Origin: a virus
Lineage: Duplodnaviria; Caudoviricetes
Strand: one strand, 5' to 3'
Virus record (IMG/VR): IMGVR_UViG_3300035498_000356
Location: 64,001-128,000 of that record
DNA: 64,000 bases
The notes under the pieces are model-generated. The model did not search any database. It had not been told where the DNA came from and was given only the letters and a program-made list of their open reading frames with translations. This document shows positions 37,093 through 63,605 of the stretch, one piece after another. Positions within the stretch are counted from its first letter, which is position 1. The number at the start of each line of letters is the position of its first letter. A program made the position numbers and the translations under genes.

Positions 37093-37273
37093 AAATTATT
37101 TTATAGAAATCATTTCTATTTAATATATCTAAAGAAGACGCCTAACATCTAAAATCTTTATTTATAAACTAAATATCATTAGTATTATAATCCCATTTAA
37201 AGTATCCCTCGAATTTAGGAAGAGATGCTATATAACCTTCTTTTAATATTGGTTTAATTTCATTATATGTCAT
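37091..37273 (-). CDS. Small conserved protein (60 aa, TAG=Gln)
   Basis: MTYNEIKPILKEGYIASLPKFEGYFKWDYNTNDI*FINKDFRC*ASSLDILNRNDFYKII-TAA. Confidence 0.7.
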
Positions 37274-40200
37274 TATTTGTTTTAGCTTTACTTGTTTGCC
37301 ATTCACCACCTTCAGATCTACTTCTAAACATTTCTGGTTTAATAGTATCAAATATAGGTTTAATCTAACGAGTAGCACCTGATATATTAACTAAGTAATC
37401 TTGAAAATCCTAATCTCCTGTGGCTAATCTACTTAAATTTTTAAGCTAACTTGACATAAATGATAATGCAAAAGGAGTCCAATTTGTAAGAGGACTTCCC
37501 AATGAATCAAATATATTAAAATCTAGGAATGAATTTTGAACAGTCCATACTGCTACATTTGCAGCTGCTAATGCACATCCAGTAGCTAAATCTGTATTTG
37601 ATTTATTCTCTTTAAGTAAATCCTTCATCCATTTTGTCATAGCACCACTTATCAATGTACCACCTACTAACCATAATGCTAAATCATATCCCATTTGTAT
37701 GATATTACTTTTATAACATCTAGCCATATCAGGATCTTCTTGTAATAATTGATTATAATTTCTAATTATATGTCTATCATTACATAATTTACTTAATGTT
37801 ACCATAATACCTTCTTGCCATTGTCCTTTCCATTGAACAACAGGAGCTAATTGCTTTTCCGGAGGAAGCGATTCTTTATCAACTACTTTATCATAGTTAA
37901 TAGTTCCATCTTCATTTAAATCATAATAGTATTCAATAACTTTAGGTTTTCCTGTATTTTCATCAATTACAGGTTTTCCTTCTTCATCTTTAACTATTTC
38001 TGTATAATTTTCCCATGAGCCACGCATACGCACACCGCCTGATTGAAGATACTAATTCTTTTTACCAGACCAATATGTTTTAAATTGCAACCATAAACCA
38101 CCAATCGCAGTAGCCTAAATTAATGATTTATTCTCTTCTGAATAATATCCATAAATATCATCAGCTAATGATTTATATCCTTCTGCTTGTTTTGAAGTAT
38201 ATGCTCTGGGCAATGGAACAGGATTGTCATAATCTTCTACTACAAATTTAGAACCATCTGGATTTGTAACACCTTCAGACATGAACTAATTAGCAACTAC
38301 ATAATACAAACTTTTTTGACGTTGCCATTCTTTATCGTTTTTATATCTTAAACCTTTAGGGTCTTCTGCAAATTTACTAAATCGCTAATCTTTAGTCCAA
38401 TCATATTTTAGTTCACCATCAACTATCGAATGAGCTTCTAAACATCCATCAGCCATCATCTAACACAAAAATATACTTAATCGGTTATAGTAGTCAGGTC
38501 TAGATGCAAATTTAAACATCATATTATTTAAATTGTATAAAGGGCCTTTTTTATTCTTAGCAATAACATCGACATATTTATTTATATCCATATCATTCAA
38601 TGCGTATAATTCATTTAGTTTAGAACATAGTGTTGGCTATCCACTAAAATTAAATAAGTCTGATGCTAATATTGCCCATGCTGCTTTAAAATGATTAAAC
38701 GTAAATGCTTCTCTACCCTCTGGGTTACGCAATGATAAACTAATATCTACCCATAATCCTTGCAATGGCTGATAGAACATTTGCACAGGAGCAAATGCTA
38801 AAGTTATTTTAGAAGCTGCTGATTTAATGGAATTTAGTATTTTAGATACACCTTGTAATTCTGGAGATACAATTGATTCTTTTTTAATTTTAGATCTAAT
38901 GTAATCTTCAAGATAACTTTTATCATTTTCAAATTTCTAACTCACATTAGCACCTTGAATACTTAGATGTGCAGCTGCTGCTTGAATAATTGGAAATATT
39001 TCATTAATGTTTTTAGTTTGAGAATAAGCAAATACATGTTTTAATAATAATGTTTCTGCATTTAATTCAAAATCTTCTGGCTAAACATTATTAAGTAAAG
39101 CATCTCTATTTTCTTCACCAGAATCAAATTCATTAGTCATTTTATAAATAAGATTTCTTGATTCTCTTCTCTTTGCTTTTTCCTCTGCTATTCCAGATTC
39201 ATTAAAAGCTCCTTTTAATTTTTCAAACCAATTTTTAGGATTAAGATTCTATAATTTATCAGCAAACATTCCACTAAGTCCTCTTACAGATACTTCTGAA
39301 TCTAAACTACCTTTAATATATGGGACTCTGTAATATTCAATATCGCCAGATTCTCTCATTGCCTATAAAGATACATCAGGTGTTGTTGGAAATCTATTTT
39401 TATTTATAACAGTAAGTATATGATCTAATAAGGGTCTATAAACCGCTGGAACCTAATCTAGTTTTTTAAATCTCCAGTCTTTTTTACCATTTAAATCATA
39501 TGGTTCAAATAAAGGTTTATATATTTCAGCTTGATTAAATCCTAAATTTTCTTTTAAGTAATTAAATCCTATAGCTTGTTTTAAATCATTAACTAATTTA
39601 TCAAGTTTTACTTTTTCTCTCTAAAGATCATCTCGAACATTTTGATATGCTTCTTTTACTAATGTTGTTATTGAATTAAGAGTATCTGAACTTAAGTTTC
39701 CTGGGTTATCTGTATAGTTACCAGATTGTCCCTCTTTGAATGTTTTAGATATATTAGTAAACCATGAAGTACCATCACTAGTTTGCTATTTAAACTAGAT
39801 TCCTTTTAAATCAGCTAATGTATATTCTGCTAAATTATATAATCTAATTTTTCTAGATTTAAGTTTTTCCAAATCATCGTATGTTTCATTAAGAGAATCA
39901 CCATAATATAGTTTTTCACGCATATCATAGATTAAAGCAGAAACAGCTTTTATTTTACTAGACATATCACCCTATCTAGCACTATCAATCATATCTTTAG
40001 CATTACTCAAATTTTTAACCATAGTAATAAGTTCTATATCTTTCTAATCTTCTTCACTTTCACTTTTGGATCTTTCAATTTGAACTGAATTTTCATGCCA
40101 AATTTCTGCTAAATTCATTGAAAGTAAATCATATTGTGATGCTAATTTATATTTACCAGAATTAAAATTATCAGTTTCAACTGGAACATAATTACATAAT

Positions 40201-42146
40201 GCATTCCAATTCATTAACAGTTGTTCATTGCTTGCTGAAGATGAATCAGCTTCATAAGGATTAATCACCATCATGTTTCCAATTACTGCATCCTAAAATC
40301 CTTCAGAAGCATTTATTGCAAGCATCATTTGCATTAATTCCAAATTACCTTTAGTACCACGTAAAGCTAATCTTTTGAAATGCTATTCAGCTTGTGCATC
40401 AGTTTCAAATGTTCCTAATAACGTATTTCTGCCTTTTAATTTAAGCTCTTCTTGTAAGTGATTAGTAGAAATACATATGAAATCAACTTGTTTAGTATTC
40501 TTATTGTATAGTGTAATTATTTCCATATCTTCAAGCCCAGAATTAGGAAGTACTTCCCATTCATGACTACAATATGGCTTTAACATATTTTGTAAGTAAT
40601 TAGATGCTCCATCAACATTTTGAAATGACTATGGGAATTCTACTTGATTTGTTCCTAATGATATTGCTTTTTCTAATGCACCTTTAGTAGCTTCCATAAC
40701 TCTATGGCGAGTAGGACCTAATTTTCTAAATTCTTCTAAAACTCCATTTATCATTTCTTCTTCAGTATCACTAGTAAGAGTTATTAATTTACCTGTTGAG
40801 GATCTCATAGTAAATTGGAATTTACCATTTTCATTTCTCTTATCAAATACTTTTCTTCTATCAAGATAACGTTTTGTAGATGCTTCATCAGCAGCTCTAT
40901 TTAAAGGAACTTCAGGTGCCCATTTAGATATATGACTAACAACCTCTTCATGAATATTCCCAGTAGTAGGATGAAAATAATATTTAGAAGGCATATAATT
41001 TTCAACTTCTTCTAAAGCTTTTGCAGTAAGTTTGCTTTTACCAATGTCTTTAACACTATCAAATTTTACTCCTTCAAATGTATAATTATCTCCTTCTTTT
41101 TTGAAGTTTTCAATATGAATAGGCAATATGCTCATATTAGAATCTTGAATAGCTACTCCTGCATTTTCAAGCATTTGGCTATAAGTTACCAACTAATAAC
41201 TATATGCTTCCTTTTTAGTTAAATCAAAGTTTTCATACTTTTTAATTGAAGTCTTATAATCTATAATATGATATTTACCATTTTTATCAAGTACTAATAA
41301 GTCTATTTTACCGAACAATGTTTTCTTATTCATATCATCATCGAATGCTTGTCCTTTCATAACAAATTCAGGAAAGAACGCACACTTCTCACCACATTCA
41401 CGAATTATAGCTTGATAAACATCATTAGCTGTCTATATTAGACTTTTTAAATTAGCATCAGGATTTCCACCTATATTTAAATAATCTAATAATTTTGCAT
41501 CTTCAAGTGCCTTTCTAGCAACTTGTTCAAAATCAGTATTTAAACCTTGTAATACATTATTAGAATCAGTAGTAAAGAAAACTTCAAGAACTTTATGGAT
41601 AGCATCACCCATTCTGGCTTGATACTTCCATTTATGTTCCATCTATTTTCTCATTTGTTTTAATTCAGTATCATCGCTTATTTTCTTTACTTTAGTTTTA
41701 TCTCCATCAAAAAATACTTCAATTTCAGTATCATTAAATTCACCATTACGCCAATCTTCATAACGACCTTCAAAGTAGTTATCAGAATCAAAATACGGAT
41801 ATAATAATTTCTATTTATTATCGTATTGATGTTTAGCTCCTAAGAACTTATTAACACCAGTTGCATTTATAAGATCTTCTGCATCTTTAGTTAATTGCTC
41901 ATCACCCTCTTCATCTCGGAATAGATAACGTTTCTTTTTCATTTCAACGTAATCATTCCATAGCTATTTATTTTTTTCTTTTAATTCTTCAATTTTCTGC
42001 ATTTCTTCAAAATGCCTATCCTTTATCTCAGAATCAAATACAATATCACCGTATCTACTAAAATATTTATCTTTACTTAATAAGAAATTATCCAATTCTA
42101 ATTCTGAATTGAACTTGTGATTTTTATAATAATATACACATCCCAT
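37263..42146 (-). CDS. Large virion cargo protein with a PD-(D/E)xK nuclease domain (1627 aa, TAG=Gln)
   Basis: All track fragments share one frame and end at TAG; GDAIHKVLE, FFPEF, GKIDLLV...IIDYKTS, YSY*LVTY motifs. Confidence 0.85.
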
Positions 42147-43213
42147 TACCTACAAATTTCAATTAATTCGTATGACTTCAATAAATCTTGTTTTCTATTA
42201 GCTAACTATCTATGAATAACGGAATCATTTGTATTAAATGTTCCTTTAAAAGTATTTGTAAGACTAGGTGAATTAACTTCCTAAGCAACATCCTAATAAG
42301 TCATATTATATAATCTTCCATCAGAAATAGTATTAACACTATAGTCACCAAATAATAATGTATCAAGAATCCGTTTTACATTATAATTAATTTCATATCT
42401 AGCTTGGTCTCCTAAAGTATCTAATCTAGATGGGATTCCAGCTAATTGTCTTGATAATTCATGAACCATTATTTCTTCAAGTGCATCATTCTAAGTTTTA
42501 TCGGGATGTTGTTCCTAAATTAATTGTTCAATATTAGGAATCTAAGCTGCCTTCTAAAGTAAAGAAGTATATAATTCAGGATTAGAAAATCTAATAGAGC
42601 CGACTAATAAATGAAGCATTTCATGAATTCTAGAACTAGGACTCATATTATCTGTATTTATGTATATAGAACCATCATAAATAAAAGCTTTTACTGTTTT
42701 ATTAGAAGGTAATAATGATTTCCATTTCTCATCATGCTCTAATTCATAACTAGTTACTTCTTTAAAATCATATCCATATAATTCTCTTAATGTATTTAAT
42801 CCATTAATTAAATGTTCACTAGTAATCTCTTCACTAGGTTCATAATACGTTTCTATATTCTTAACTAATGAATCTGGCCTTTTATTTATTTTGAGCATAG
42901 ATCTTTTTCCAAAATCTATAGCTTCTACTTGAACATCAGCATAATGACTATTTAGATTCTAAACAGCTTCTGTTACAGATTTAGTACCTGTAAATTTTAA
43001 TAAATCTTCATTACTAACTCCGCCATGTTTATTTACTTTTAATACATCTTTTAAATATGTAGTAGAATCACTTCCCGGAATTTCGTCTAATCTTGGTAAT
43101 CTATTATGTTTATCCTAAAATACTATACAATGTGTGTCAAGAACTTTATCAGATAAAGTAGAGGACCTTTTTAGGTCCCCGTACTCTACTGAATCTTTAT
43201 TTATACATTTCAT
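42146..43213 (-). CDS. Zincin-like metalloprotease virion protein (355 aa, TAG=Gln)
   Basis: KAFIYDGSIYIN...RIHEMLHLLVG (HExxH) with a downstream EEIMV third-ligand motif. Confidence 0.8.
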
Positions 43214-46200
43214 ATTGGACATGATTTATCATCATTACTTTCAACATCTTCAACTTTTAGCAACTCATAGTTAACTATTTCTTTGCCATCTTCCATTTTA
43301 ATTGCTTTTTTCTCTTCAAGCTCAGTTCTAAGAAATAATCTTTCACTTCCGTCTTCTTTTGTATATGTTATAGTTGTTATCTTATCATTAGACCTTGTTA
43401 CTCTAAAATCAGGAGGAGTTGGCTAATATGCTAACACAGGTTCACTACCTAGAATATCACCAAATACATAATAATCTGGATCAGGAACACGTAATTTTTT
43501 ATATCCGTATACTTGATATTTACGAGATTCAAATTCTTCTCCAATATCAGATTCATCAATGTCTTCCTCTTCTTCTTCAAAGTCTTCAATATCCTCATAA
43601 TCCTCATCCTAATTTCTCCTATTCTGAGCAGCTTCATATGCTTCACTTATCCACATTTCTTTTAATCCAGAATCTGGATTATATTTCCATATATAGGCAG
43701 CATTTGGATTTTTATATGCATTTTTTGCAGCTATGAAATAGTGCATATCAGCATCGTCTGGATCTAATTCTAACAGATTTGCATCCTTATCATATTTACT
43801 AACAATGTTAAAATATTTAGAATACGATCTTGATGAATCTCCTCCATCCTTACTTGCATACTTAAATAGGTTCATAAATGACCTTTGTGAAGGTCTCCAT
43901 TCTTGCGCATATAATGTATATAAGAACATTAAATCTCTGAAGTCGTGTCCTTGATATTTCTCTCCTTCAAAATTATTAAAAGCATTAAGCACCTCATTAA
44001 ATGCTATGTCTGCTTTTGTTCCCTTTTTAGGCATCATATTTATTGAAGGAGTATATACTAATTCTTCGTTTCCAGAAACCGTATTAGTTCTAGCACCAAC
44101 AGAAATTGATCTAAAGAATTTATTTTTAGGATATTTCTTTTGATAATATGGAATAACTTCATGCTCCATCCAATACTTAAATGAAGCTAATTCATCATTA
44201 CTTCCTAAACCTAATGTCTATTCTGTTTTTGAATCCGTGTTTAAATAACCTCCAGAAAATACATCCTTAGTTTTAAAAGTAAATCCAGATTTAGAAATTT
44301 CTTTAAAATATTGTATTATCATTCTAGACTGAACATATCTACTCATTTGTTTGTAGACATCTTCCAGCTTAGCTAGACCGTACTTATTTTTTACACTATC
44401 TCCATATTGATATATAAACCTATATCTTAAACTATTATTTTTAAGATATAAGTGTGAAGAAGTTAATGACTAAACATATTTATTTATATCAGGCATTAAC
44501 ATTATTAAAGCAGGAAGATTGAAATTTACTTTTTCTTGTTCAAATGAATCAATTATTTCCCATTTCTTTTCTTCACTTCCAAATACCAAATCTTCTATTC
44601 TAAACTTTAAGCTCTATTTATCATTTTCACTTAAAATAAGATTGTCTCCGTTGAGTAGTTTGTATCTTAATTTCTTTACATTCATAACACAATTCTCAAC
44701 ATCTTTAATCTTCTTTAAGAATTTTTCAAATGTATTAGGAATTCCTTGATTTAAACTTACTATACTACCAATTTGCTGCATCGCAGATGAACCAATAGAA
44801 AGTATTTCAAGCATTCTAAAGTTATTAGCATTCTCACTATTTTCATTTCCTAAATCCATTCTATGGAGCTAATCGTGATATTGTTTTACAAACTTCCAAG
44901 CTGATTGTAAATCATTATTACGCATATTTCCATCCTCGTTGACAAAGATTTTATTTAAATCCGATGCACTTCTCGAATCGAACCATTGGAATTCCTTACT
45001 TGTTAAATCATTATAGCTTAGACCTTCTAGAGTTTGTTTTAAAGCAATGGCTAAATCAGCATTAGTTACTTTACCAGTAAGAGACTAATTGTTCTTCATG
45101 CTTTCTATTATCATACCTATTCTATTTTTCTCTTTGCCATTATATTTTATCTATTTATCAGGATATTGTCTTCCGTCATTCAATATATAAATAATAGCAG
45201 CCATTGGAGAATAAGCAGAAAAATTAACTCCCTTACCAACTGGAGGAACGAAATTTTTATTTCCTTTATTGTACTTATACATTACGGAAATAGGTCCAAA
45301 TCTGAAATAATCAAATATATTATTTATTGATATATCAGCTCTACCCTAGAAGAAGTCACCTTTCATTGCTTCTTTTAATACTTCTGTAGTTGAAGACATT
45401 AGAAGAGTTGATAGGTCTTTAATCTTCATTCCTATTGTAATACCATATAGATATAAGCCAATAAGATCAATACCAGCATTGATTTTTTCAAGCACCAACT
45501 CTTTAGCATTATCCGCAGACAAACCGAGTAATGCACTTAATTCACCAGCAGCATCATCTAGATTATTTTCGTCACAAGCTTTTTCTAGACGCTTTAATGC
45601 TTTTTCATTAACAATAGTTAAAGGGTTTACAGCTCTAATATTAGCTACTTGCGGTGCAAATGGTCCGCATGCATTAAGTATATCTTCAGGAATTTCAAGC
45701 AATTTCTAAAGTCTTGGATCTTTAGAATTAAGAATAGTATTGTAAAAATGAGTTAATTTAAAGTAAGTTTTAATAGTAGCAGCAGATTTGGCAATACAAT
45801 CTTTACCAGTGTAATTACCAGCAATTATAGAACCAGGATTGAAAGAATTGCCAGTTCCATTAAATAATGCTTTAGCGGCTTTAGGAGATGCATTAGCAAT
45901 AACTTTTACATTATCTGCTACAGTATCTACTGAAGACATTGCTTGTAATAAGTTAGCAGTATCAGTAATTATATTATACATAGCATACTAATTTGAATTA
46001 TTAATAATCCTATGTAATTTAGAATTACTTACATATTTACTCTTTAAATATAGATTATGATCATTAATTATCTTAAAAAACTAATCATAAATCGAATCCA
46101 ACATGCCATTGCTAATTTTTGGATCTTCTTTTAGGTTTAGCTTTTTCTTCAGTAATTTAGCAATTTTTTGTTTTACTTTATCTTTAATCTCATCATTAGG

Positions 46201-49200
46201 CAAATATACACTTTTTTCTTCTAATAATGATTTGATATTAGCTAAAGTTAAATTTGGATTATTACTGAATTTTGGAATCTTTGTAGCATGGTGTTTGAAT
46301 TCTAATCCGCCTTTTTTATTTATTCTAAAGTTTAATAAATCAGAATATTTATCAAAGAAATCAACTACTGGAGTTATTTTACTAGAAAATATTACTTCCT
46401 AAGTTTTAGTAGCTGATGTTCTAGATAATTCTTGATTATTGGGTAATGGTAGAGTTTTAGATATATCTAATCCATTTCTATCATCCAATATAGCATAAGG
46501 AGACCATAGATCTAATTTACCTTGTCTATTAATATCAAATGTAAGCAAAGTAACAGCATCAATATCGAAGTCAGAACCCTGCAAGAATATTTGTAAGTCA
46601 GAAACATAAGCTGTATTTAACTAACCATCAGTAAAGTCAGCAATTTGCATTGCCATGAATGATTGCATATTCTGTGCAGGAATACGAGCAGCTATAATTT
46701 TACCATGTTCGATAAATGAATTATACATTTCCATTCCATCTATAAATAAAGGATTACTTTCAACTTTATTTATAAATTCTTTTTCTTCATCTGTTAATTT
46801 CTCTCCTCTACTTGCTCTTTTCTTAATAGTCTTTAATCTATGTAAATCTACTCTACGTATTGCAGGAATTTTATTATAAGCTTCTATATATTTCTAAACA
46901 GAATCTATTTCAACAGGATCTTCATCGGAATCATAATCTATCTTATTTAGATATTTATCCATCTTCTCTTTCCATTTAGAATTGTCATAAGAATCAAATA
47001 TCTATTCCTAAATTCCTTCCTATGAATTAAGAGTCTATTCTGAAATATTAAAATGAGAGCCACCTAATGAATTTAAATAATAATCCAAGACATCTTGGTC
47101 AATAGACATGTTTCCATCTTCATCAGTCTTTGTGCCTAATACAATTACTTTAACACCTTTATCATTTTGATAAATTCTAGCTCCTGGCTTGATTTCATAA
47201 ACAGGATTATCTTTATCATCAAGATAAAAAATTCTTCCCATTTCATCAATCATCTAATTAACGGAACTTGTTACATCATGTAGACCTGTTTTATTAAAAC
47301 AATTGTCAATTGCAATATAATAATGATTTCCATTATTATTTTTAATTTCAATATTAAATTGACTTGAATCAAGATTTGATCCAAATTTATTAATATTCTA
47401 TTCTACAAAATAAGATTGATTATTTTTAATTTCGCCAAATGTTGCATTGTCTTTTAAATCATAAGTAGACTAAAATACTTTAGGCATTATAATTTCATAA
47501 TCCTAATGTTTTATAGAACTTCTGTCGACAATAACATCATAAGCTTCACCATTTCCATCATTAATTCTTACTTTATACTAAGCTAATCTATTCCTTAGAT
47601 TTTCAAACGCAGATATAATAAGTTCCTTACTGGTTATTTTAGTTGTATCTATAGGCATATCATATAGCAAAGCACAGAATTGGTTAAGTCTCTATTTAGC
47701 TAATTCGAGTTCTCCTTTTTTAAGATACCAATTAATTTCTTCACCTAATTCATCCCAATTCTTTTGAACATCAGATGAAGTTTTTGAAAGATTATATAAA
47801 TCACGTTTCATCTAACGTTGATTTTCTCTATATCTTGCATTTAATTCATTTAGTCTCTATTCTAATTGTGCTACTTCCTATTGTAAAGCAGAAACATTTT
47901 CTCCAGGTTTTAATTTAGTATTATATTTTTGAACTAACTTTTCATTTGTATCTTCTATTTGTCCATTCAATTCCCAGCATGTTTGTACTGAATCTAAATC
48001 CCATAAGCAATACTTATCAGACTAATCTCCATTAGTGCCAATAAATCTTACATTATAAGCACCTAAGTCACGACCATTCATAATATATTCAGTAATCTTT
48101 ACACAATTCCCATCCTTAACTAATTGTCTTAGTTCTTTTAAACTAATTTCGTTATTAGAATCAGTATGATATAATTTTACTGTATAATTATATACTTGCT
48201 ATCCCGGTTGTAACATTCTGTATTCATCAAAAGCTTCAGAATACATTCTTTCATCATATGCAGATCTATTTTGAATCAAATTACCAGATTCACTTATTTC
48301 TGCTGTATCAGATTCAATTCTAGTTTTAGGTCTATTCTTCTTAGTTTTTTCAATAATAGCTAAATAAGTCAATCTCTATTTTAAATCATCACTTCTTTCA
48401 CTATCATTATTTAATTCAGAAATAGCTTCTTCTAAAGAGAATGCTTCCCTATCTTCAAATCCAGTTTTTGCTTTTTGAACTCTATTAGTATCAAATAATT
48501 TATAGTTAGGAACATCATTTATTTGATCAATACTAAATTTATAAGTATCACCATTATAAATAACTATAAATGACTAACCATTAAATGCGGTATCAACATT
48601 TTGATTAACTAATACTCTATATGTATACTCAGGATTTACATCAGCTACAAATCCTGTGCCAGAATCATAAATAGGATACGAATCATAATGGTTTCTTTGT
48701 GTATCAAGTAAATCTCTAAATGGATCTTGATATGCACTTAGTTTTCTATCTCCATAAATTCTAGCTCTTTTATGAGAGGGAGTTAACACAGATAATGTGC
48801 CAGGCATTTTAAGTTTAATACCATTTTTAGTAATGTAATTAGCTAAAGCATTAATAGCTCTATTAAATACACTATTATCACTTAAAGCTAACCCAGAAGC
48901 TTCTAAAAATGCATTTTTATCTTGAGTCCACTTAAATTCCTATAATATATTTTCAGCTATAAATGAACCAAAACTCTAAGTAGATGAATTAGCTAAACCT
49001 TTAATAATTATTTCATTACATATTTGTGTTAACTAATCTTTCTACTTTTGATTTACATTAATATTGGCTGACTCAATTAAATCATTTAATGTAATTTCAG
49101 CAATAGCAGATACACCTTCATACAATGAATCAGCATCTTTAAATGAATAACCCAAAGCCGCACAAGCAGATATTACCTATGTAGGTACACTTACTTCACT

Positions 49201-52200
49201 CATATCAGCTGTATGCTCTTTATCCAACTGAGTACCAGCTTGAATTACTTGAATTTCTTGAGTAAGTAAATCATCCTAATCTTCATATTTATCATTAGGA
49301 TTAAAGTTGGCACCTCCTTGCTTAATTGCACCCTCTGTAACCACATATTGAGTCTATGAATGTTTCATAGGCTGATAAAAATCCCATTGCGTTTTAATTT
49401 CTTCATTAGGAACTTTAGCAATACCTTTTTCATTCATACAATTAACAGTAGTTTCTATAGAAGTTTCAGATAATTCTAATCTTCCAGTTCTACTATTCTA
49501 TGCCATGCTGTATAGTCCACCAAATAATTCCCAAGCTTTTACATTAGAATTTACATCATTATAATCAACATATTGAGCTTCAGCACCATCTACTATATCA
49601 CCTAATTCATCAACTTCGTATTCCTCTCTGGTATAATTATTATCACCTTTATATTCGATATTTTTAATCCAATAATACTTTCTACCTTTTGTGTAATAAA
49701 TACCTCCAGCAGGGAATAATGATTTTGGAGTTCCATCTTCACCTATATTTAAATCACTTTCTAACAAATTCCAATTAATTGCATTTCCAGATTCATCTTT
49801 CCAAATCTTGGAAGACATTTTATAAAAAAGATTTAAATTAAAATCAAGACTCATTCTCATATTTGCATTAGTCAATGCAAATACAGCAGTTTTAATAATA
49901 CCTCCTGTACCTACTTCAGGATTATAGAAATGAACAAAGGTTTTCTTAGTTTCTCCAATTGCTTTACTACCACCTAATGAATTATTTTCAAGACGCATAG
50001 TAAATGGATCTACAATAGTTGCACCATCAAATGGAGTTACTTTTTCATGTTTACTAGTAATAATATCTACATACTTATGTAAATCATCAACTACAGCTAT
50101 ATTATAATTCTCGTTAACTCCATATAATGTATTTAAATCAAATTGTTGCATTTGAGCAGTATAAGATACATTACGTTTACATTGAGCATTATACTATACT
50201 GATTCTTCAACCATTTCCTAAATATAATTAGCTTTATTTCTTAAAGATTCAACCTCTTTAGTCATTGAATATTTAACAGGATGCCCTATTATAGATCCAA
50301 CAGTAGAAAGTACCCATTGTTGGGTAAATAGATATGATAATAAATTTTGTTTTTCTAATATAGGATTTAATTTTATACTTCCAGGATTATCTATTTCAAA
50401 ATTCTGTAGATAATTTCTAATATGTTCCATTCCTTTGAAATCGGATCTAGAACGTATATTCATATATTGTGCAGGTTTTCCATTTGCATCATATATAATT
50501 TTTCCATTATCATCTACTAATGGAATTTTAGCAATAATTAAATCACCATTATCATCAATCCAATCTTTATTGTCTTCTTTAATTTTGTCTACAATTCCTT
50601 TACTATCCTTAGATTTATTTACATCAGAATCTAATGAATTGATATTTATTGTAACTCCTTCTTCTATAAGACCACCTATTAATTCGGCATGTCTCATTCT
50701 AAAGAACTATCCAATAGTAGACCATCTGCCATTACTGTTGCTATTTCTAAAGAATTCAGATATTAAATTATGAACTTGTTTATTACGATCATTTATTCTA
50801 TTTTTTGAAGGATTATATCCAAAACGATATACCTATGCTAATAGAGTATTAGAATTATTTTGAATTTTACCTCCTTTGTATGATACATAAGTCTAATCAA
50901 CTATTTCAACTTTATCGTACGGATGAGCCTGATTATAATATTTTGTTATATCATAAATAAATTGTCTTTCTGTAAATAAAGGAAGGCTTTTATTCTTTTC
51001 ATTTAACGCATTTAACCTGCTAATAAATTCTTTGAATTTAGCAAAATTATTAAAATAATCAAGTGATTTTGCAGACTTAATCTCAGATAATATTTTTTGT
51101 AAAGTATCTTTTTCTTCTTTATTTAGATTGTATCTATCGTACTTTTCATTTACAAAAGTTTCAATAGAGTCATGTAGTTTCTAAAAATCATTTACAATTT
51201 TATATAATACATTAGAATAGAATTTACCTAAATTTTGTTTTATACTATATAAAATTTGATTAGGTTTTGCTGATTTATAACTTATTCTTTCAGTTGTGTA
51301 TTTTCTATTAGGATCTAAATCACCGTATTCATTAAGATTAGTAGGAACAACAAATTGTTCATTTAAATTTATACGTAATTTAGGCACTGTATTTTTATCA
51401 GAGTTTACAGAAGCCAAGAAACAAGCAAGACCTTTAGATGTATATCTATTATCATCTCCAGAATATACAGCTGGGAGATAATCCAAAAGAATATTCATAT
51501 TCATAAATTCAGAAGGATTACATGTTACTGTATCTTTAGTAACTCCTGTTAATTTAGAATATAATTCATTATCAATTGAAACTTCGTACATCAAATTAGG
51601 ATTAGTTACTATATCTAGTTCACTAGCGGCAGCTTCCTATGATTTACACCAGTATTCCATGGTTTCTCCATAAGTACATAACAACTTACTAAATGACTAT
51701 ACACTCTATGCTTTACCTTCACTATTATTAATTTGTGCAGAAACTCCAATACCTAGAGCGCTTAATCTTGATTGAGATAATTCACTTAATATTTCATTAT
51801 CAGATTCAGTTCCTCCATACAAATTTAATTGTTTTTTAGTTAGATTATATTTTACAGCTCTAGTTTGATTTTCATCCCAGCCTAATTTCTTTTGTAATAT
51901 TTCTTTTACTTGATTATCAGAATTAGTTTCTCGTAATTCAACATTAGAAGTATATATTCTATGTAATATTCTACCTATAAATGAATACAACTTAGTTAAC
52001 TAAGTTTCCGCCTCATGTTTCTACATAAAATTATTATAGAATTGAGGTTCATTTTCAAAATCAGTTCCAAGTAATTCAAAAGATAATTGTTTAAGTAAGT
52101 TTTCACAATACTAATATGATTCATCAGATTTAGTTAAAGTATTTACTCTAATAGGTGCTCCATAATTAGCATCTTCTGGTCTTACTTTTTCTGCATATTC

Positions 52201-53961
52201 AACAATTACATTTTCATTCTTTCGATTAATTGTTAATATTACGAATTTAGTATTATTAGAAGAATTTTCTATAGGTATTTCAAATTTTATTTTTTCATCA
52301 TTAGCTCCTTTATACCCAAAATTTTCTTGTAATTTTACTTTAAAATCATGTTCTTCTTTAGGTTGAATTTTTCTAGAGTTCTTTTGATTTATTTCAGATT
52401 TAAAGTTAAGAGTCTATACATACTCAGACATATCAAGCATAGGCCTATTATATATACTTCCATTCTCGTCTTGATATGACTATGTTAATATGTTTTTAAA
52501 TATGGAATTAGTAGTCTAACTTACATGTAAAAATACATTATTTGGATCTTTAAAATTGGTTAGATTATACAAACTTCTAGTATTACGTTTTCCAAATATT
52601 TGATAACAAATAGTTCTTAATGCATCTTTCTATGCTGGGCTTAATTCTTTTATAAGTGTAACATCATCTAATAAACCATATTCATATAATTCCGCAATCA
52701 TTGGCATTATTTCAGAGAAATTGGTTCGCAAACTATTAATAATTTGTGCTAAAGATTTGCCATCACAAAATGATTTAGTAGTTTCACTCATATCAAGTGT
52801 TTTTGTATTATCATATAAGTTAAATACCCTACTACTAAAATCGCTATCTTCACCTCTAACATTTAATTTTAGAAATGAAGTTATAAATGCATAATCATTG
52901 AAGTTTAGATATTTGCCTTCAATAGGATTGCCAGCAGAATCGACTAGTTGTGTAGTGTCAATTAACAACTACACAACCTTATCGGATTCTTTCATTATAT
53001 CAATATTTTTACCATCATCTTTACGCCAAGAACCTATATCATCAGCAGTTTTATTTCTGAATTCATATTTATCAGATCCATCTTTTGTACCAAATCTATT
53101 TATTTTAAGAACATCTCCAAATATATGTTTAATATATGAATCGAAATTAGATAAAGCTACCCATGCATTATATGCTTTTAATTTAGCTTTATCTTTTTCT
53201 TTATTAGAACTTAATAAATTATTTAAGTCTTGAGATGTTAATTTACCATTAAATAGACGATTAACAAAATCTATGAATCTACCACTCCATAAATTTGTTG
53301 CTTTTGTTTCACCTCCAACAACTTTATATAAAGTAGTTTCTAAATCATCATCAAGTTTTTTATTAGTATAGTTATTTATATAATATAAAATATCAGCAAG
53401 TAACTTTTCTTGATAACGTCTAATATTTCTATTTAATGCTGCAACACCATTTACTTGTTCAAAATCAACATCTGTTAATTGTCTATTAAATACACATCCA
53501 TCAAATAAGTGTGTTTTTACATCCAATACAGCTAAATCCTAAATATTAGTAGCAGTTCCATATGCATTATCTAGAAATTTATCAGTAGCATTAGATGGAT
53601 TCTAAGATTCTACAGGAACTTCAACCATAGATATTGGAGCCAATTTCGTATCTTTTATTTCTCCATGTAATACTCCTTCTAAATATGGCAATACATTATC
53701 TGTATTTACTGAATCACTTTCACTCTCCAATTCAGCTACATTTCTAACAGTATTTACCAAATTATCAACAAAAGTTATTACATTTGGATCATCTAAATCC
53801 ATAGAAAACTAATCAGATACTTGCTAAAATACAGTATTAAATAGATCTGACACAGATGTAATATCTACATTCCATTCTTTAGAATCCATATATGCATATA
53901 CCATTTCTTCAGCATATGCTGATGCTTGATTTATTTCAAATTTACATTTAGTTACACTCAT
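43210..53961 (-). CDS. Single-chain virion RNA polymerase (crAss vRNAP, 3583 aa, TAG=Gln)
   Basis: 14 track fragments in one frame; AARIPAQNMQS and catalytic GSDFDID (46558-46572); DGAT, KTAVFAL, GTQLDKEH conserved blocks. Confidence 0.9.
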
Positions 53962-56900
53962 ACCGGAGATATTATTTTAGATATTTTACAAGATCTAGTT
54001 TCTTCTTTAGTTTCACCCATCTGTTTAATTAACTCTTCTATATTTTTTATTTCTGTTATTGCATCTTTATATGTTTCTTTTATAGATTCAGGTAGACTAT
54101 CTAATAATTCTAATCGTGTATCTACTGAATCTTTTTGCAATACCCAAGTATCTATTTTACTATATGTAGATGCTAATCTCATATATCTACCTTTTATATT
54201 ATTTTTTAATTCAGAAATAAATTCATTAGCAAAATATACATCTTCATTAGCCAATACTTTCTTACATCTATTTTTAATCTATTCTTTAGTTACTGCTGAT
54301 TCAACTTCTACAGTTTCTGTAACTGTTTCAGAATACTCAAATCCATTATCCTTAGCAATACAATCATATTCAACAACATTTCCAGAAGTATCTTCAACTC
54401 TCATTATAAATTGTTGATTGTCATTAAATGATGTAATCTCTTCATTTGTTTTAGGATTAATAAATTTAACAGATTTGTTTACAAAGAATTTATCATTAGC
54501 TTTTAATAATGAAATTCCAAACTAATATAATAAATAAGGGGATTCTGTATTCGAGTTTACAGATGAAATACATCTACTAAATGCTTCTGAAAGATTATCT
54601 TCGGTTACTTCAAATGATAATCCAGTTCCATCTAATACACTGTTAATTTGTTCTTGTGTATTATCAATAGCCAACTTAATTGCTTGTTTCTTCTTTTCTT
54701 CTTCAGAAACATTACTACGTGATTCTATATTTAAATAGAAATCTGTTGAAGCATTTACTTTCTCACCATTCTCTCCAGCTATTTTAGCCATCTATTCTAT
54801 AAATGGAAGCTTACCATAGAATGTTATTGTTTCAACCTTACCATGAATTAAGAAATCAACATCTCCATCTTCTGTTCTTAATTTACCATCTTGAACATCT
54901 CTGAAATTAAATAATGAATCAATATTACTATTCTTTCTAGTTCTAGGTGTATAATTAAGCATAAAGAATCTAGCATCATCCCCGTTTTCACGCATTAACT
55001 AAGCACGCTTATTATATTTATCTATTTCTGCTTGAATTTGATCAACTATATTCTAATCTATTTTCTTATCTGGACCTTCTACCAGATTTACAAATAAATT
55101 AGTTAATACATTAGTAAATGGTATATTATCTTGATTATTAAACTTAAATGATGATTCTAATGCCAATTGATAAGCTTTATATTTATCATCATTAGTAATA
55201 TCAGAAACCCAATCATCATATAGCTAATTAAGATTTTTGATTGTTTCTATAACCTTTTTTAATCTGCCACCATTAAATGTAATTTTACTATTTCTTGACT
55301 AGAACTATTGTATCAAATCAACATTTTCTGATTCCAATATCAATCTTACTAATTTATGAATTGTATTGTAATATCCAATTTTATAAGATAATCCAGATGC
55401 ATTACCACTCAATGATGTTTTTAAGTAGTTAACATATTGACTAACTGTAGCTAAAGGATTTATTACATAAATCAATTTAATTGTTTTATTTCCAGAATAT
55501 CCAGACTATTGTTGCTCAATATACTTATCAATTAATTCTGATTCTGAAAGCGAGGATTCCTGACTAACAAGTATAAACGAGTGACCAGGCTATACGATAA
55601 CAGATTTCTCTCCCTTTGAATCTTGAATACGTCCAGTTTCAGAAGGAACATGGAATATTCTAGAATAATTTAATCTAGTATCTTCATTATTTAAATATAA
55701 TTGACTAACAGGTTTCCAATCAATTGGATCCTATGTAGTAATATCATATACCAATTTAGTTTCATCCTATTGGAATTTACCTCTTTTCTAAGAGAATAAT
55801 AATCCTTTACACATCAATTTACTAGGAGTCCACTCATTAACATCTTTATGTTTTGGATTTACCACAAATTTCCCATTTTCATATTTTCTTATTCCGAATC
55901 TAAATAAGAAATAATGAGAATGTCTATATATTTTTAAATAGTTTTTAAAATCATCAGAAACGTCTTTATCATTTAATATTTCTTCAAATACTCCTCCAGG
56001 TTCAGAAATCCACTCAGCATCCGTTCTATCTTTATTTTTCTATGCATGTTTTTGGAATATTTCATATTCTTTAGGGAAATATGGTTTTCCTTCTGAATTT
56101 GTACTTAATATTAATGTAATAGGATTGCTTATTGTAAATAATGGAATTTCTAATACATCACCATATTCTGCCTGTCCTATAATTGCTACTAATTGACTAG
56201 TCGGAACCTAATCAGAACCCTAAACATCTTTATCTACACCATATACTTTTTCATCCATTGACTTATGAAGCTAAGTATTTTCAGTAAAATCATCTTTACC
56301 TTTAGCTTTATTACTTTCACGAGCAGATTTAGTATCAACAGCTTTAAATCCAAAGTCAATGTACATTCCATTAAAACCTAATATTTTAGATAATGTATTT
56401 ATCATTTCGGTTTTATTAGAAGATGTTAATAAAATGTTATGTATAGTTCCTAAAAATCTCAATGCTGATTTAGCATCTCTTTTATCTATAATGTTCTTAA
56501 TAAGTTTAGTAACATTTTTAAATTGTGGATATTTAGAATTTTTAGATAATTCATTTAACAATTTAAATCCATTTACACTATCAATTCTAGAATATGATTT
56601 GCCAGAAGGACTTGTATATGTACCTAACTAATCAAATTCAAATAATCCAGTATCTGGATTTACAACAGCTCCTAATTCAAGGCAATTCATACTATAAAAT
56701 TCAACATTAAAATCCATTGAATCTAATGGATTTTTTCTATTCTTAGATTTTTTGCCTTTTTCGTATTTTTCAGAATCGAGATCTGTATTTATTTCATCAA
56801 CACCCTCTTTATCAACTGGTTGTGCCTTTTCTTCGTATTCAGGTTCTTTCTTTGCTTTTTTCTTTTTCCCTTTTTCTTCTTTTTTAGCTTTTTTATTTTC

Positions 56901-59900
56901 ATCAATAGTAATTGCTAAATCATCAAAGCTTTGAATAAAAATGTCAATACCAAAATTCTTACTGATAAATTTTTTCAATTTAACATCATCGAATACAGGT
57001 TTTCCAACGGTAAATATATACTTTATTTCGTCAATATTCTAAATAGGTTCACCTAAATTTCCAGTAATTATAAATTGATGAGGATTGCTTATATCTGATT
57101 CTTCTTTTAATAAAGAAGCATCTCCACTTAATAATTTAAATAAATCTTCAAGAGTATCAATTCCAATATATGGGTAATTAATTAAATCAGATGGTTTTAC
57201 ATTATGAGCTGAAAGTCTTTTATTAAATTCTTTCCATTGTTTATTTAGAATAGTTTCATCTCCACTTGTTAATGTAAATTTAGCACTATCACCTAAATCT
57301 TCAATAAATTCTTCAGCGTAATTTTTAGGCTCCAACTTTGACAAAGCAGATTCTTTTACATTAACATCAATTCCATGTATACTAATATCATATGAACCAT
57401 CCTCGTAATAATTTGTAATAATATACACATTATTACCTTTATATACTACTCTGTCACCAATCTAAAATTTATCTTTAGGAGGTATTGCTGTTTTTTTAGT
57501 AGAAGTTCCACCTCCGGTAGTACCAGTACCTGATGGTGTGCCACCTCCAGCAGGAGTTCCAGTGCCTGATGGAGTACCCGATGGTGTTCCGCTACCAGTA
57601 GGCGTTCCAGTACCTGTTGGAGTAGTAGATAATGAAATATATTCAATTACATTTCCATCTTTATAAGTATCTTTTAATTCCTAAAGATAGTTTTGAGTAT
57701 ATGATTTTAAATGTTCTTTATATCCTTCTTCTGAATATACTGAACTAATAGGCGTACTGTATATCTGTAAAGGATTAGTATTGCTGTAATATATAATACT
57801 TGCCTGAGATGCTCTAGTTAATCCAGTATATACATATTTATAATTCTATAATCTAGATGTAGGAGATTTAGTAATATCAACAATTGAATATCTGGATTCC
57901 TATCCCTATGCTTGATTTCCATGTCTTATTATAAGATGTTTGCTTATTTCAGCATCTGCTGTCAATGCCTTATATAATGGTGAATTTTCATCATCATAAA
58001 TATATAATATTTTTTCATTTTCATCAGCATTTGTATGAGATGTATCAAGTGTTGTTATTATTTTTTTAATGGACTCAATTGCATCATTAACTTTTGTAGA
58101 TATTAAATCACCATATAATTGATTATTTTTCCAATTATGTTCTATTTGTATCATGTTATTAATTGGCGATTCTTCATCTTTACTTTCTTCTATTTGCAAA
58201 AAAGATTCAAATTTCTACTGGTTTGATGTTTTAACTGTATTACCAGTTCGCATTGTTAAACCTAATTTAGGTGGTCCATAAAATTCCTATGAAGAGACAC
58301 CTAAATTTTGCAGTAGTGTTTTAGATTTATATTTTATTTCAGTAATTCCTTCAACACTTGATTGATGATAATCTCCCGCAACAATTACAGATACACCATA
58401 TTTTCTAGCCCATTTATTAATTAACTATAATTCAAGTGAATTAAATAATGTTATTTCATCAATATATAAAACTTTAGGATTATCAGAAGTTTCTTTAAGT
58501 TCTTTTGTTGATACTACATTTCCATATTTATCAATTGCTGTATCTTCTGATGGTATAATATATGCTTTCTTTTCATCATCAAATTCATATTCAGTATAGT
58601 CTTTAATTATACTATCTAAAAATGTTTTTTTATTTTTAGATGTTACTTTCCCTACACCAAATAATCCATTTCCAGTTGTAGTAGCTTCTTCGTTAGTTTC
58701 TTTAGCTCCATGTACAAACCATTTTTTATTTTCTATATTTGGATTTGATTCTATTAACTTATCCAATATAACAAATACAGCAGATGTTTTGCCACTACCT
58801 GCAATTCCTTCTATTAAAGTGAACATATTATATTTAGGAAGACGCAAAGCATCATATCGTAATTCCTTATCAAGACTACCTCCTAAATCTAAACCAGTAT
58901 TAACTTTATAAATAGCAGCATATTCAGAATCACTCATTTTATCAAGTTTTCCTTTAATAGATTTATATTGTCCATTAAAGTATGATCTGAATAATGGTTC
59001 ATTCATTATTTTTGCATACGTCATTCTTACAGCTTCTAGCTACATAGGAATAGTTCCTAAATCACCAAAATCTAGCTAAGAAACAGCATGATAGAAATCA
59101 GAAGATTTTATAGAGAAACAAGATAATAAATATTGTACAAATTGCTAGTCATTTATAGTTTTAATATTTTCATTAGCAGTTGATAGATTTTTATTATTTG
59201 TTAAATCAAACAAATCCAAAAATTGAGTCATGCTATTTGCATCTAGAAGTTTATCTTTAACCTTCTATCCAAATTCATATAAAGCATCCTCAATTTCAGT
59301 TACTCTTTTGCTAAATTCTTGTGTAGTTAAAGTACGCCCATTTGTATCCTATAATACATGTCTCAATTTAGTTTCTAAATCATTCCAAGCATCTCTATCC
59401 CAATCTTTAAATACATCAGTATCACCTCTTTCTAGAAATTTAGATAATGATTTACATCTAGCCTTCATTAAACCATTTCTAGCATTATTCTATTGTTGTA
59501 ATTTATTACCTCTATTTATATTATAAATATTACGCATATAAATCAATTCAGACTAACGTTTATTTAATTCATGAATTAAATCCTAAGTCATTGAAGATTC
59601 AGTTGTAACTAAATTAAGAGGTTCTCCTAACTTCTTAGACAATTCATTCATAATAACATTAAATCCAAATGGATTTCCTTGAGTAATACTTAAAGTATCA
59701 GTTGTAGCACATTTAAGAACTGCTTTTAACATTTGTATATATCTCAATGCTGAATTTATAGATTCTTCTATATCAGCCATTGATTTTATACCATTAATAT
59801 CTTTAGCAGTTTTTAATTGATCATGTATTTTTTTAATTAATTCGGAATAATTAAGTTCTTCGTTATTTACAGATAATGCAAATTTATTTAATATTCCATC

Positions 59901-62900: not shown

Positions 62901-63605
62901 ATTCATTTTATTAAGTACTTTTCTTCCATAAGTGTCTCTACCATCAAGCGTTTCATAGTAGTATTGTCCATTTGGACCTACTTTCTATTCACCTTTCATA
63001 TGGTGAGTTTTCTATTTAGTTACAGGATCAATATGGTCTCCTTCTTCATCCCAAGTGGCAAGGACAAGAGACTTATCCCAATAATCAAAGAATCCAGAAT
63101 GAGGATCTTCTCCCCATTGTGCATTCTCAAAATTATCACCTGCTGTTAAAGGATTTAATAATACTTTATTCTATTGTGCAAGTTCATCAATAGACATTGT
63201 TTGTCTACTTTGTTCACCCCATCCAACTAATCCAGTTGACTATTTAGTTGGATTTGGAACAATTATCTAAGTATACATATCTTTAATAGATCCTCTTTGA
63301 CTACTATCAACTGTCATGTTAGTAGCTGCATGCTTAAACAATTTATTTGACTCTTCTTTAGCTTTTCCACTAGCCATTACAGAATAGTTTACCTACGCAA
63401 GCTGGTAGGCTTGATTGAACATTTTGTCATCAAACCTACCATCTTCCTTAGTAAATTGTTTTTGTATATATGGATTGCTTTTATAATAAGAAGCACTTTG
63501 TAAAGAAGTGTTATCAGCACTTAACCCTACAGCCATAAAATCTGATGTAGAAAATCCAGGATTTGCTACAACATTAAGCATCATATCATTTTCTTTATTA
63601 GTCAT
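53958..63605 (-). CDS. Giant virion cargo protein with an SF1 helicase domain (3215 aa, TAG=Gln)
   Basis: Track fragments share one frame; EGIAGSGKT, YIDEI, AGDYHQ, AQG*E, YTGLTRAS helicase motifs; N-terminal Gly/Ala-rich helical region. Confidence 0.85.
57496..57630 (-). repeat. Low-complexity (G/S)TP(S/T)G repeat linker inside the 3215-aa protein
   Basis: Translates to TTPTGTGTPTGSGTPSGTPSGTGTPAGGGTPSGTGTTGGGTST; local GC spike. Confidence 0.8.

Follow-up and report, generated by a model that had tools for sequence, protein, structure and literature searches.

Along the virion cargo proteins of crAss-like phages, cysteine is found near a chain end essentially only if that end faces a neighbouring protein, and we consider it likely, at a probability of about 0.65, that the two facing cysteines form a head-to-tail link, most probably a disulfide, which would re-join a polyprotein split into separate genes. 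The sequence rule, its conservation, the pairing of cysteines across gene junctions and their loss on gene fusion are demonstrated below. No phages are more abundant in the human gut than Crassvirales, whose giant cargo proteins are not visible in the cryo-EM atlas.

A Probable Four-Gene Cargo Block

The window, that is, the whole stretch of 64,000 nucleotides that was analysed, contains a block of four genes, all on the minus strand. Gene A (53958–63605), the first chain member, encodes 3215 residues with TAG read as glutamine and has an SF1-helicase-like core, with weak Pfam matches to AAA_30, Viral_helicase1 and UvrD_C_2 at residues 1593–1938. Gene B (43210–53961) encodes a 3583-residue homologue of two-barrel virion RNA polymerases, in which the catalytic DxDxD motif of this enzyme class is present as GSDFDID (residues 2462–2468); when this is aligned with GSDFDVD of crAss001 gp50 and with 12 relatives, the G, the S and the three D residues are invariant. 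Gene C (42146–43222) encodes a zincin of 358 residues, or of 355 from the second ATG (43211–43213), whose HExxH motif (H200, E201, H204) is invariant in 60 sequences. Gene D (37263–42146, ATG at 42144–42146), the last chain member, encodes 1627 residues with an N-terminal PD-(D/E)XK nuclease (Pfam PDDEXK_1, E = 9e-12). The four reading frames are open only when TAG is read as a residue and are broken under code 11, and the glutamine assignment of the initial annotation is borne out by the homologues, in which Q is the commonest residue at TAG columns and all 24 of the sequences aligned there have Q opposite the TAG at residue 318 of D. A search of the window for tRNAs found none.

On sequence grounds, B is the counterpart of crAss001 gp50 and phi14:2 gp66. 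A and D appear to be the counterparts of crAss001 gp47 and gp49, to which they show weak matches by pairwise BLASTP only (E = 5e-4 and 2e-4, respectively), and with which gene order and the terminal-cysteine pattern agree. Other searches returned little: C had no match in Pfam or PHROG, the PHROGs search of the block was nearly blank, B matched nothing among PDB sequences, megablast with the region hit no phage record, a related-locus search with protein C alone found none, and tblastn in INPHARED yielded two distant records only. The block is probably the form that the cargo block of Crassvirales virions takes in this phage. Its products, the RNA polymerase included, are probably packed in the virion and injected, as suggested by common motifs and a matching gene order alongside weak homology (E = 2e-4 to 8e-3). 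Virion presence has been established by mass spectrometry for the homologues of two phages only, crAss001 (PMC10172136) and phi14:2 (record notes).

Terminal Cysteines in the Window

Translation with TAG as glutamine confirms what had first been noticed in this DNA, namely that all six inward-facing termini of A to D carry a cysteine within 10 residues of the end, and that both outer ends (the A N-terminus, MTNKENDMM, and the D C-terminus) have none. Protein A ends in RSCKISKIISPV, its cysteine (codon 53988–53990, minus strand) being the tenth residue from the end in RSC-KISKIISPV, and B begins MSVTKC (Cys6, codon 53944–53946, minus strand). The C-terminal cysteine of B is the third residue from the end, in DDKSCPI (codon 43219–43221, minus strand), and faces that of C in MSNMKC, or MKC from the second ATG (codon 43205–43207, minus strand). 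At the last junction, C ends IEICR, with cysteine second from the end (codon 42152–42154, minus strand), and D begins MGC (Cys3, codon 42138–42140, minus strand). Cysteine is scarce in these proteins as a whole, with 9 residues in A, 23 in B, 3 in C and 12 in D (0.3–0.8%). Among 172 other reading frames of the same 155-kb genome, cysteine occurs in the first 6 residues in 4% and in the last 10 residues in 16%, and against this background six out of six inward termini have a rough chance of 3e-7. The junctions read ATGA, ATGA (for the MKC start of C) and TAATG, in line with the original description. The terminal cysteine codon of B overlaps, in another frame, the first ATG of C, which is a real but minor caveat.

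Conservation and Pairing across the Order

Far from being unconserved in homologues, the terminal cysteines are kept almost absolutely across the whole phage order. Over a span of about 25–45% identity, the N-terminal cysteine of D is present in 52 of 52 homologues, in two of which it is the sole cysteine of the protein; that of C occurs in 105 of 109 homologues of full length, the remaining four being truncated gene calls; and the C-terminal cysteine of C lies within the last 3 residues in all 109, of which 36 have no cysteine beyond the two terminal ones. In the corresponding alignments, Cys3 of D (A1), Cys6 of B (A2), and C6 and C357 of C (A4) are invariant. The A-to-B junction obeys the rule in 20 relatives, where B starts M-x-K-C and A ends C-P-I-x-I-K-I-K-F, with cysteine mostly at −8 to −10, and the C-terminus of B in relatives reads NPC, NCK or NGC, without ATG overlap.

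The pairing was counted in 80 diverse crAss-like loci with 102 unique gene junctions: cysteine stands on both sides at 70, on neither at 28, upstream only at 1 and downstream only at 3, a both-or-neither co-occurrence with a Fisher p of 1.3e-20. In the phage's own family, 92 unique junctions divide into 79 with both, 12 with neither and 1 mixed. The outer ends of the chain (first protein N-terminus, last protein C-terminus) essentially never carry cysteine, and extra chain members inserted in loci of the L059 type have it at both ends. Cysteine is otherwise depleted, as 165 giant reading frames (402,356 residues) contain 371 cysteines, or 0.092%, against 1.49% in neighbouring reading frames; 184 of the 371 fall within 8 residues of the N-terminus or 15 of the C-terminus, against an expectation of 3, and internal cysteine is absent from 78 of 119 complete giants.

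These data bear on the most prosaic explanation, that the terminal cysteines are due to chance or are a nucleotide-level by-product, arising where stop codons overlap start codons or from translational coupling. The codon overlap between B and C in the window would fit it, as would that between the cysteine codon of C and an in-frame TTG of D, but the upstream cysteine codon overlaps the next ATG at only 1 of 70 junctions, and the gaps between genes range from −13 to +47 nt. Translational coupling is inessential to the rule, since the gp47 gene of crAss001-type phages lies convergently on the opposite strand, and yet the protein has the matching C-terminal cysteine; in crAss001 itself the single cysteine among 2342 residues lies at −3 and is matched by gp50, which starts MSKRC. 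Terminal cysteines have moreover been kept over very deep divergence, in which all others were lost. The rule is not due to chance, and the by-product explanation is already refuted, with practically no probability left to it.

Fusions, Splits and Exceptions

The same block is encoded as one cysteine-free polyprotein of about 5,500 residues in some phages and as two to five genes in others; the existence of fused polyproteins was noted by Drobysheva et al., who regarded them as 'likely cleaved'. Fully fused giants (5,472–5,639 residues) contain zero cysteines. The C–D fusions P0106 and P0195 retain Cys4 and lack both junction cysteines, and their sequence is colinear with the split proteins if the two cysteines are set adjacent; B–D and A–B fusions are likewise without the corresponding terminal cysteines. 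On the RNA polymerase tree, the B–D state changes at least 4 times and the A–B state at least 7 times, and 8 of 8 informative independent contrasts go in the predicted direction, the tree-based sign tests being underpowered singly (4/4, and 4/4 with 2 ties).

There are exceptions. One B–C fusion (P0135) retains a cysteine at the joint, C extends C-terminally past its cysteine in L080, extra genes separate the D-like protein from the chain in L149 and L161, the first protein lacks a terminal cysteine in L170, and gut lineages such as that of p-crAssphage keep several internal cysteines. Two further sets of candidate exceptions were rejected: in loci of the L033, L053 and L079 type, C starts at GTG and so begins (M)ANC or (M)ANNC, and in L002, L026, L033 and L084 the cysteine-less break that interrupts B is an intron and not a protein junction.

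Loss on fusion would also be expected, since termini disappear, if each terminal cysteine acted alone and unpaired, for example as a site of chemical modification or as an anchor to one capsid or portal partner common to all. Several observations make this quite improbable: outer ends essentially never carry cysteine, both-or-neither is near-perfect (70 and 28 junctions against 4, and 79 and 12 against 1 in the own family), inserted members gain cysteine at both ends, and split and fused sequences line up when the two cysteines are placed side by side.

The Proposed Link and Its Chemistry

The proposed mechanism builds on the sequence rule: where the chain splits into genes, one cysteine is kept near the new C-terminus and one near the new N-terminus, and almost every cysteine other than these is purged. 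The two facing thiols would then bond to each other across the junction, most likely as a disulfide, re-joining neighbours head to tail into one ordered virion thread of about 8,800 residues in the present phage. Such a link could serve co-packaging or threading through the tail, and the reducing host cytoplasm would break it, freeing the polymerase, the zincin and the nuclease. In the initial annotation, terminal cysteine pairs had been thought to chain the four proteins, by disulfides or metal sites, for packaging and sequential ejection; its pairing of facing ends is supported by their co-occurrence and by the loss of both cysteines in fusions, while we infer the chemistry of the bond, the virion location in this phage and the part played in packaging, ejection and release.

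A metal ion bridging the facing pair in place of a disulfide would leave the proteins chained head to tail and would fit the same comparative evidence (conservation, pairing, cysteine purge, fusions). The site envisaged is a two-thiolate one such as Cu(I), or Zn or Fe with water or terminal carboxylate or amine ligands. A reducing cytoplasm disfavours disulfides during assembly, and the cysteines have as neighbours the free carboxylate of one chain end and the free amine, or the Met, of the other. We regard such a bridge as unlikely, as each end offers one thiol, with no conserved His, Asp, Glu or second Cys at a fixed offset (His 0.8–1.4%), and the distance from the cysteine to the chain end varies; moreover, disulfides are demonstrably present in crAss001 virions, between subunits of the gp57 dimer, the tail hub and the ring proteins (PMC10172136). 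An intermolecular zinc site of the zinc-hook or zinc-knuckle kind was rejected, because it needs at least 2 ligands per chain and there is a single cysteine per end, with no conserved His or second Cys.

Alternatively, an enzyme might ligate the ends, giving a genuine peptide bond, or they might be processed at cysteine in some other way, with removal of short overhangs. The overhangs are indeed short and variable (0–2 residues after the C-terminal cysteine, M-x(1-3) before the N-terminal one), and a zincin belongs to the block, but it is absent from some junctions, Pfam shows no intein/Hint domain, sortase or ligase signature, and mass spectrometry of crAss001 lists gp47, gp49 and gp50 as separate proteins of predicted sizes (PMC10172136), so that ligation is very improbable. 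A split intein with trans-splicing was rejected, with 0–2 residues after the C-terminal cysteine in 64 of 70 junctions, 2–4 before the N-terminal cysteine and no Pfam intein, and so was a bacterial lipoprotein lipobox, as the cysteine lies at position 2–7 directly after Met without a hydrophobic leader.

A difficulty for the disulfide, which we prefer, is the place and time of its formation, because the hosts are presumably anaerobic Bacteroidota, whose cytoplasm would be reducing. A family search found no thioredoxin in the phage genome; one for an Erv1/ALR-type oxidase gave no match there but was uninformative, as the Erv1 control also had none. With several junctions, another determinant must specify which cysteine pairs with which. 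Complex prediction for a near-cognate natural pair (P0070 with residues 1–450 of P0018) scored 0.13 and was counted neither way.

Significance

A tether of this kind, if true, would explain how split and fused gene architectures can be interchangeable, how stoichiometry and ejection order could be fixed, and why the proteins are otherwise free of cysteine. Extended tentatively, at slightly less than even odds, to all crAss-like phages, the cargo would be one covalently continuous thread of 0.6–1 MDa, either a polyprotein or separate proteins joined in fixed order by single terminal disulfides, and reduction in the host cytoplasm would be the switch that both releases and activates the RNA polymerase, the zincin and the nuclease. 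The rule that cysteine occurs only where a protein meets the next also gives a cheap and concrete prediction for crAss001 and phi14:2, and offers annotators of these recoded genomes a marker by which to recognise members of the chain, genuine start codons and introns.

Comparison with Known Systems

The closest parallels are gp67-gp66-gp65 of Cellulophaga phage phi14:2 (gp66 = PDB 6VR4) and gp47-gp50-gp49 of Bacteroides phage crAss001, giant late proteins with an identical terminal-cysteine pattern. In phi14:2, the only cysteines are C1797, the last residue, of g067, C3 and C2179 of g066, and C3 of g065; the three crAss001 proteins obey the rule despite the gp47 gene being on the other strand; and the p-crAssphage type ends SFSCM at a stop codon, followed by MSC. 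Common to the phi14:2 and crAss001 blocks and to A–D are a middle DxDxD two-barrel RNA polymerase and a zincin domain. The block described here differs in comprising four proteins, one of them the zincin, which is a free-standing link of 358 residues, in the much larger size of A and B, in its recoded TAG, and in the SF1-helicase-like core of A and the PD-(D/E)XK nuclease of D. We found no mention of these cysteines or of a covalent link in the published accounts of these phages that were consulted, and no published description of a terminal-cysteine tether in the literature. The structural disulfides of crAss001 show that such bonds form and persist in the virions of a Bacteroides crassvirus, but they staple ordered, symmetric proteins, whereas the proposed link would join unresolved cargo end to end.

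The N4-like phages (Schitoviridae) also eject a giant virion RNA polymerase (gp50/gp71) with companions (gp51/gp72, gp52/gp73), and the strong cysteine depletion of their ejection proteins has been explained by their transit across the periplasm (PMC11445570). Cysteine is absent from practically the whole length of the N4-type proteins, whereas the crAss-type ones, equally depleted internally, keep one cysteine per junction-facing end. In nicked two-chain toxins, one disulfide spans a chain break, and its reduction after delivery to the cytosol separates the chains. The cargo block may be likened to these in having one cysteine on each side of a break in an otherwise single polypeptide, in the passage of the cargo through a narrow channel and in a plausible release by reduction. 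Unlike in the toxins, the pieces are the products of separate genes and do not arise by proteolytic nicking, the cysteines lie at the extreme termini, and as many as four or five proteins would be strung together.

The Probable Cargo Block and Its Genetic Code

Four neighbouring genes on the minus strand of the window, read with TAG as sense, encode the proteins A (53958–63605; 3215 aa), B (43210–53961; 3583 aa), C (42146–43222; 358 aa) and D (37263–42146; 1627 aa counted from the ATG), all of which are broken into fragments under code 11. The translation of TAG as glutamine assumed in the initial annotation is reasonable, since Q is the commonest homologue residue at TAG columns of the alignments, and it is directly supported by residue 318 of D (41193–41195), where TAG falls on the Gln of the nuclease Q-x-x-x-Y motif, an invariant position (Q in 24/24 homologues). 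No tRNA genes were found in the window by ARAGORN.

Pfam places a PD-(D/E)XK nuclease domain in D (E 9e-12) and gives weak SF1 helicase matches for A, and C, with its invariant HExxH, is a zincin. B carries the two-barrel RNA polymerase (RNAP) motif GSDFDID and is alignable with crAss001 gp50 and phi14:2 gp66, the latter (g066) being the crystallised polymerase (PDB 6VR4). Pairwise BLASTP shows weak similarity of A to gp47 and of D to gp49. From the motif of B and these links, weak for A and D, the A–D block is therefore the probable counterpart of crAss001 gp47-gp50-gp49 and phi14:2 gp67-gp66-gp65, which are virion components by mass spectrometry (crAss001: PMC10172136). The zincin module is mobile: free-standing in the phage of the window, in one relative (L120:1202–13204; see also L189:1076–6964) it appears as an N-terminal fusion on a 4000-aa RNAP protein starting MNCVNKSSKE, and the annotation of the crAssphage ZA record has it fused with the RNAP-associated protein before it. 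The RNAP gene of several relatives is split exactly within its catalytic motif (exon 1 ..LQGSDY, exon 2 DVDAVSL..) by an insert (L084:5104–6276, L002:14223–15284, L026:4586–5764, L033:4586–5765) which encodes a 234-aa LAGLIDADG ORF and weakly matches an Rfam group I intron (26 bits, E 3e-4, under the gathering score).

Terminal Cysteines in the Window and Its Lineage

Cysteines had been reported at both facing ends of every junction, and the TAG-sense translation bears this out: A ends in RSCKISKIISPV, B runs from MSVTKC to DDKSCPI and C from MSNMKC (or MKC, with the second ATG as start) to IEICR, and D starts MGC, while the outer ends (A N-terminus, D C-terminus) have no Cys; the A–B, B–C and C–D junctions are ATGA, ATGA and TAATG, respectively, as described. 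Among other ORFs of the phage's own 155,354-bp genome, a Cys occurs among the first six residues of 4% and among the last ten of 16%, giving a chance of ~3e-7 for six of six facing ends, before allowing for post-hoc selection. Outside the window, in the virion module (G000:C1:149727–150754 of that genome), a 149-aa ORF ending ..KRKPYC overlaps a 192-aa ORF starting MQIKRC, which might form a structural disulfide pair resembling those of the crAss001 tail.

The terminal Cys proved to be conserved among relatives, mostly metagenomic loci in which ORFs and start codons were called by a simple in-house caller. D begins M-x(0-3)-C-x-Y-x-Y-K-G in 52/52 full-length homologues (23–45% identity), and in two of them this is the sole Cys. 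An exhaustive profile-free search yielded 462 relatives of C; Cys lies among the last three residues in 109/109 full-length cluster representatives and among the first eight in 105/109, the other four being truncated gene calls, and in 36/109 the two terminal Cys are the only ones. C-type genes of L033 (8956–9045), L053 (8962–9177) and L079 (5155–5178) have a GTG start directly past the upstream stop ((M)ANCLIK or (M)ANNC), and ATG-only calls remove this conserved motif. The A–B junction of 20 diverse relatives reads ..C-P-I-x-I-K-I-K-F, stop, then M-x-K-C, and additional genes inserted in the chain (L059 type) have Cys at each end. Across 92 unique tight junctions from 80 IMG/VR lineage loci, Cys is on both sides in 79, on neither in 12 (the outer chain end and intron boundaries) and mixed in one. 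A subgroup of D homologues (L033:10001–14845; P0027, P0035, P0038, P0039, P0042, P0043) has an extra conserved Cys 7–9 residues before the C-terminus, ..RPILNCINQSLQED, which hints at a further partner.

An Order-Wide Rule

The same pairing was confirmed across Crassvirales. In 80 very diverse crAss-like loci, gathered with an RNAP motif-region alignment, 102 unique tight boundaries between large same-strand ORFs have Cys on both sides in 70, neither in 28, upstream only in one and downstream only in three (odds ratio 653, Fisher p 1.3e-20). Cys is rare in the giants themselves, at 371 in 402,356 residues (0.092%; 165 unique ORFs of at least 1000 aa) versus 1.49% in neighbouring ORFs; of these Cys, 184 fall within 8 residues of the N-terminus or 15 of the C-terminus, against 3 expected, and 78/119 complete giants have no internal Cys. 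Gut lineages such as p-crAssphage (junction of this type ..SFSCM, then MSC) keep some internal Cys. The usual tally along the chain is 1-2-1 or 1-1; in 64/70 junctions, the upstream Cys occupies −1 to −3 and the downstream Cys one of positions 3–5. Exceptions are L080, L149/L161, L170 and the B–C fusion P0135; in L149 (14355–20578) and L161 (14082–20489), an exception of adjacency, the D-like protein, with the start MSC..YKG, is two genes downstream of the chain, and the proteins between them lack a C-terminal Cys.

Cultured phages follow the pattern. In crAss001, the single Cys among 2,342 residues of gp47 is at −3, gp50 has N-terminal MSKRC and C-terminal ..ICGANTLYEL, and Cys5 is the sole Cys of gp49. 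The phi14:2 pattern is cleaner: C1797, the final residue, is the sole Cys of g067, C3 and C2179 are the only ones of g066, and C3 is that of g065.

Trivial causes can be excluded. Overlap of the Cys codon with the next ATG is seen in only 1/70 upstream Cys codons, junction gaps vary from −13 to +47 nt rather than being fixed, and a nucleotide-level artefact is at odds with crAss001 gp47, the first member, which is encoded convergently on the opposite strand and yet has its terminal Cys.

Loss of Cysteines upon Gene Fusion

Where cargo genes are fused, the Cys of the joint disappear. P0106 and P0195 are C–D fusions, confirmed by contigs with an ordinary B upstream, that retain the N-terminal Cys and lack both joint Cys; with the two Cys placed next to each other, ..L-KEYC plus C-IYKYKGH is colinear with the ..KL-TKAEN-GYILEGH.. 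of these fusions. RNAP–D fusions (C-part of at least 1,900 aa, judged by length alone) never have the C-terminal Cys that split RNAPs have, A–RNAP fusions lack Cys at the start, where split RNAP proteins have M-x-C, and fully fused giants (5,472–5,639 aa) have no Cys anywhere. On the RNAP-core tree, the state changed at least four times at B–D and at least seven times at A–B, and 8/8 informative independent contrasts agree with the prediction, two others being ties.

Possible Linkage and Comparison with Known Systems

Each facing end offers one thiol, and the simplest reading of these sequences is that facing Cys form an intermolecular disulfide; inter-subunit disulfides do occur in crAss001 virions (PMC10172136). 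The main alternative, a metal bridge of two thiolates, would use the same pair, and neither a conserved His nor a second Cys was found near the junction Cys. Intein, lipobox and zinc-knuckle features are likewise absent at the terminal Cys. A disulfide or other Cys–Cys link would re-establish the continuity of a split polyprotein, which may serve co-packaging or tail threading, and would be broken in the cytoplasm. No description of these terminal Cys or of a covalent cargo chain emerged from full-text searches, nor from Bayfield 2023, the DEV paper or the Drobysheva preprint. The ejection proteins of N4-like phages have no Cys, a feature attributed to their passage through the periplasm (PMC11445570), whereas crAss-like cargo proteins retain Cys at their termini, and it is against this background that the retained residues are conspicuous.
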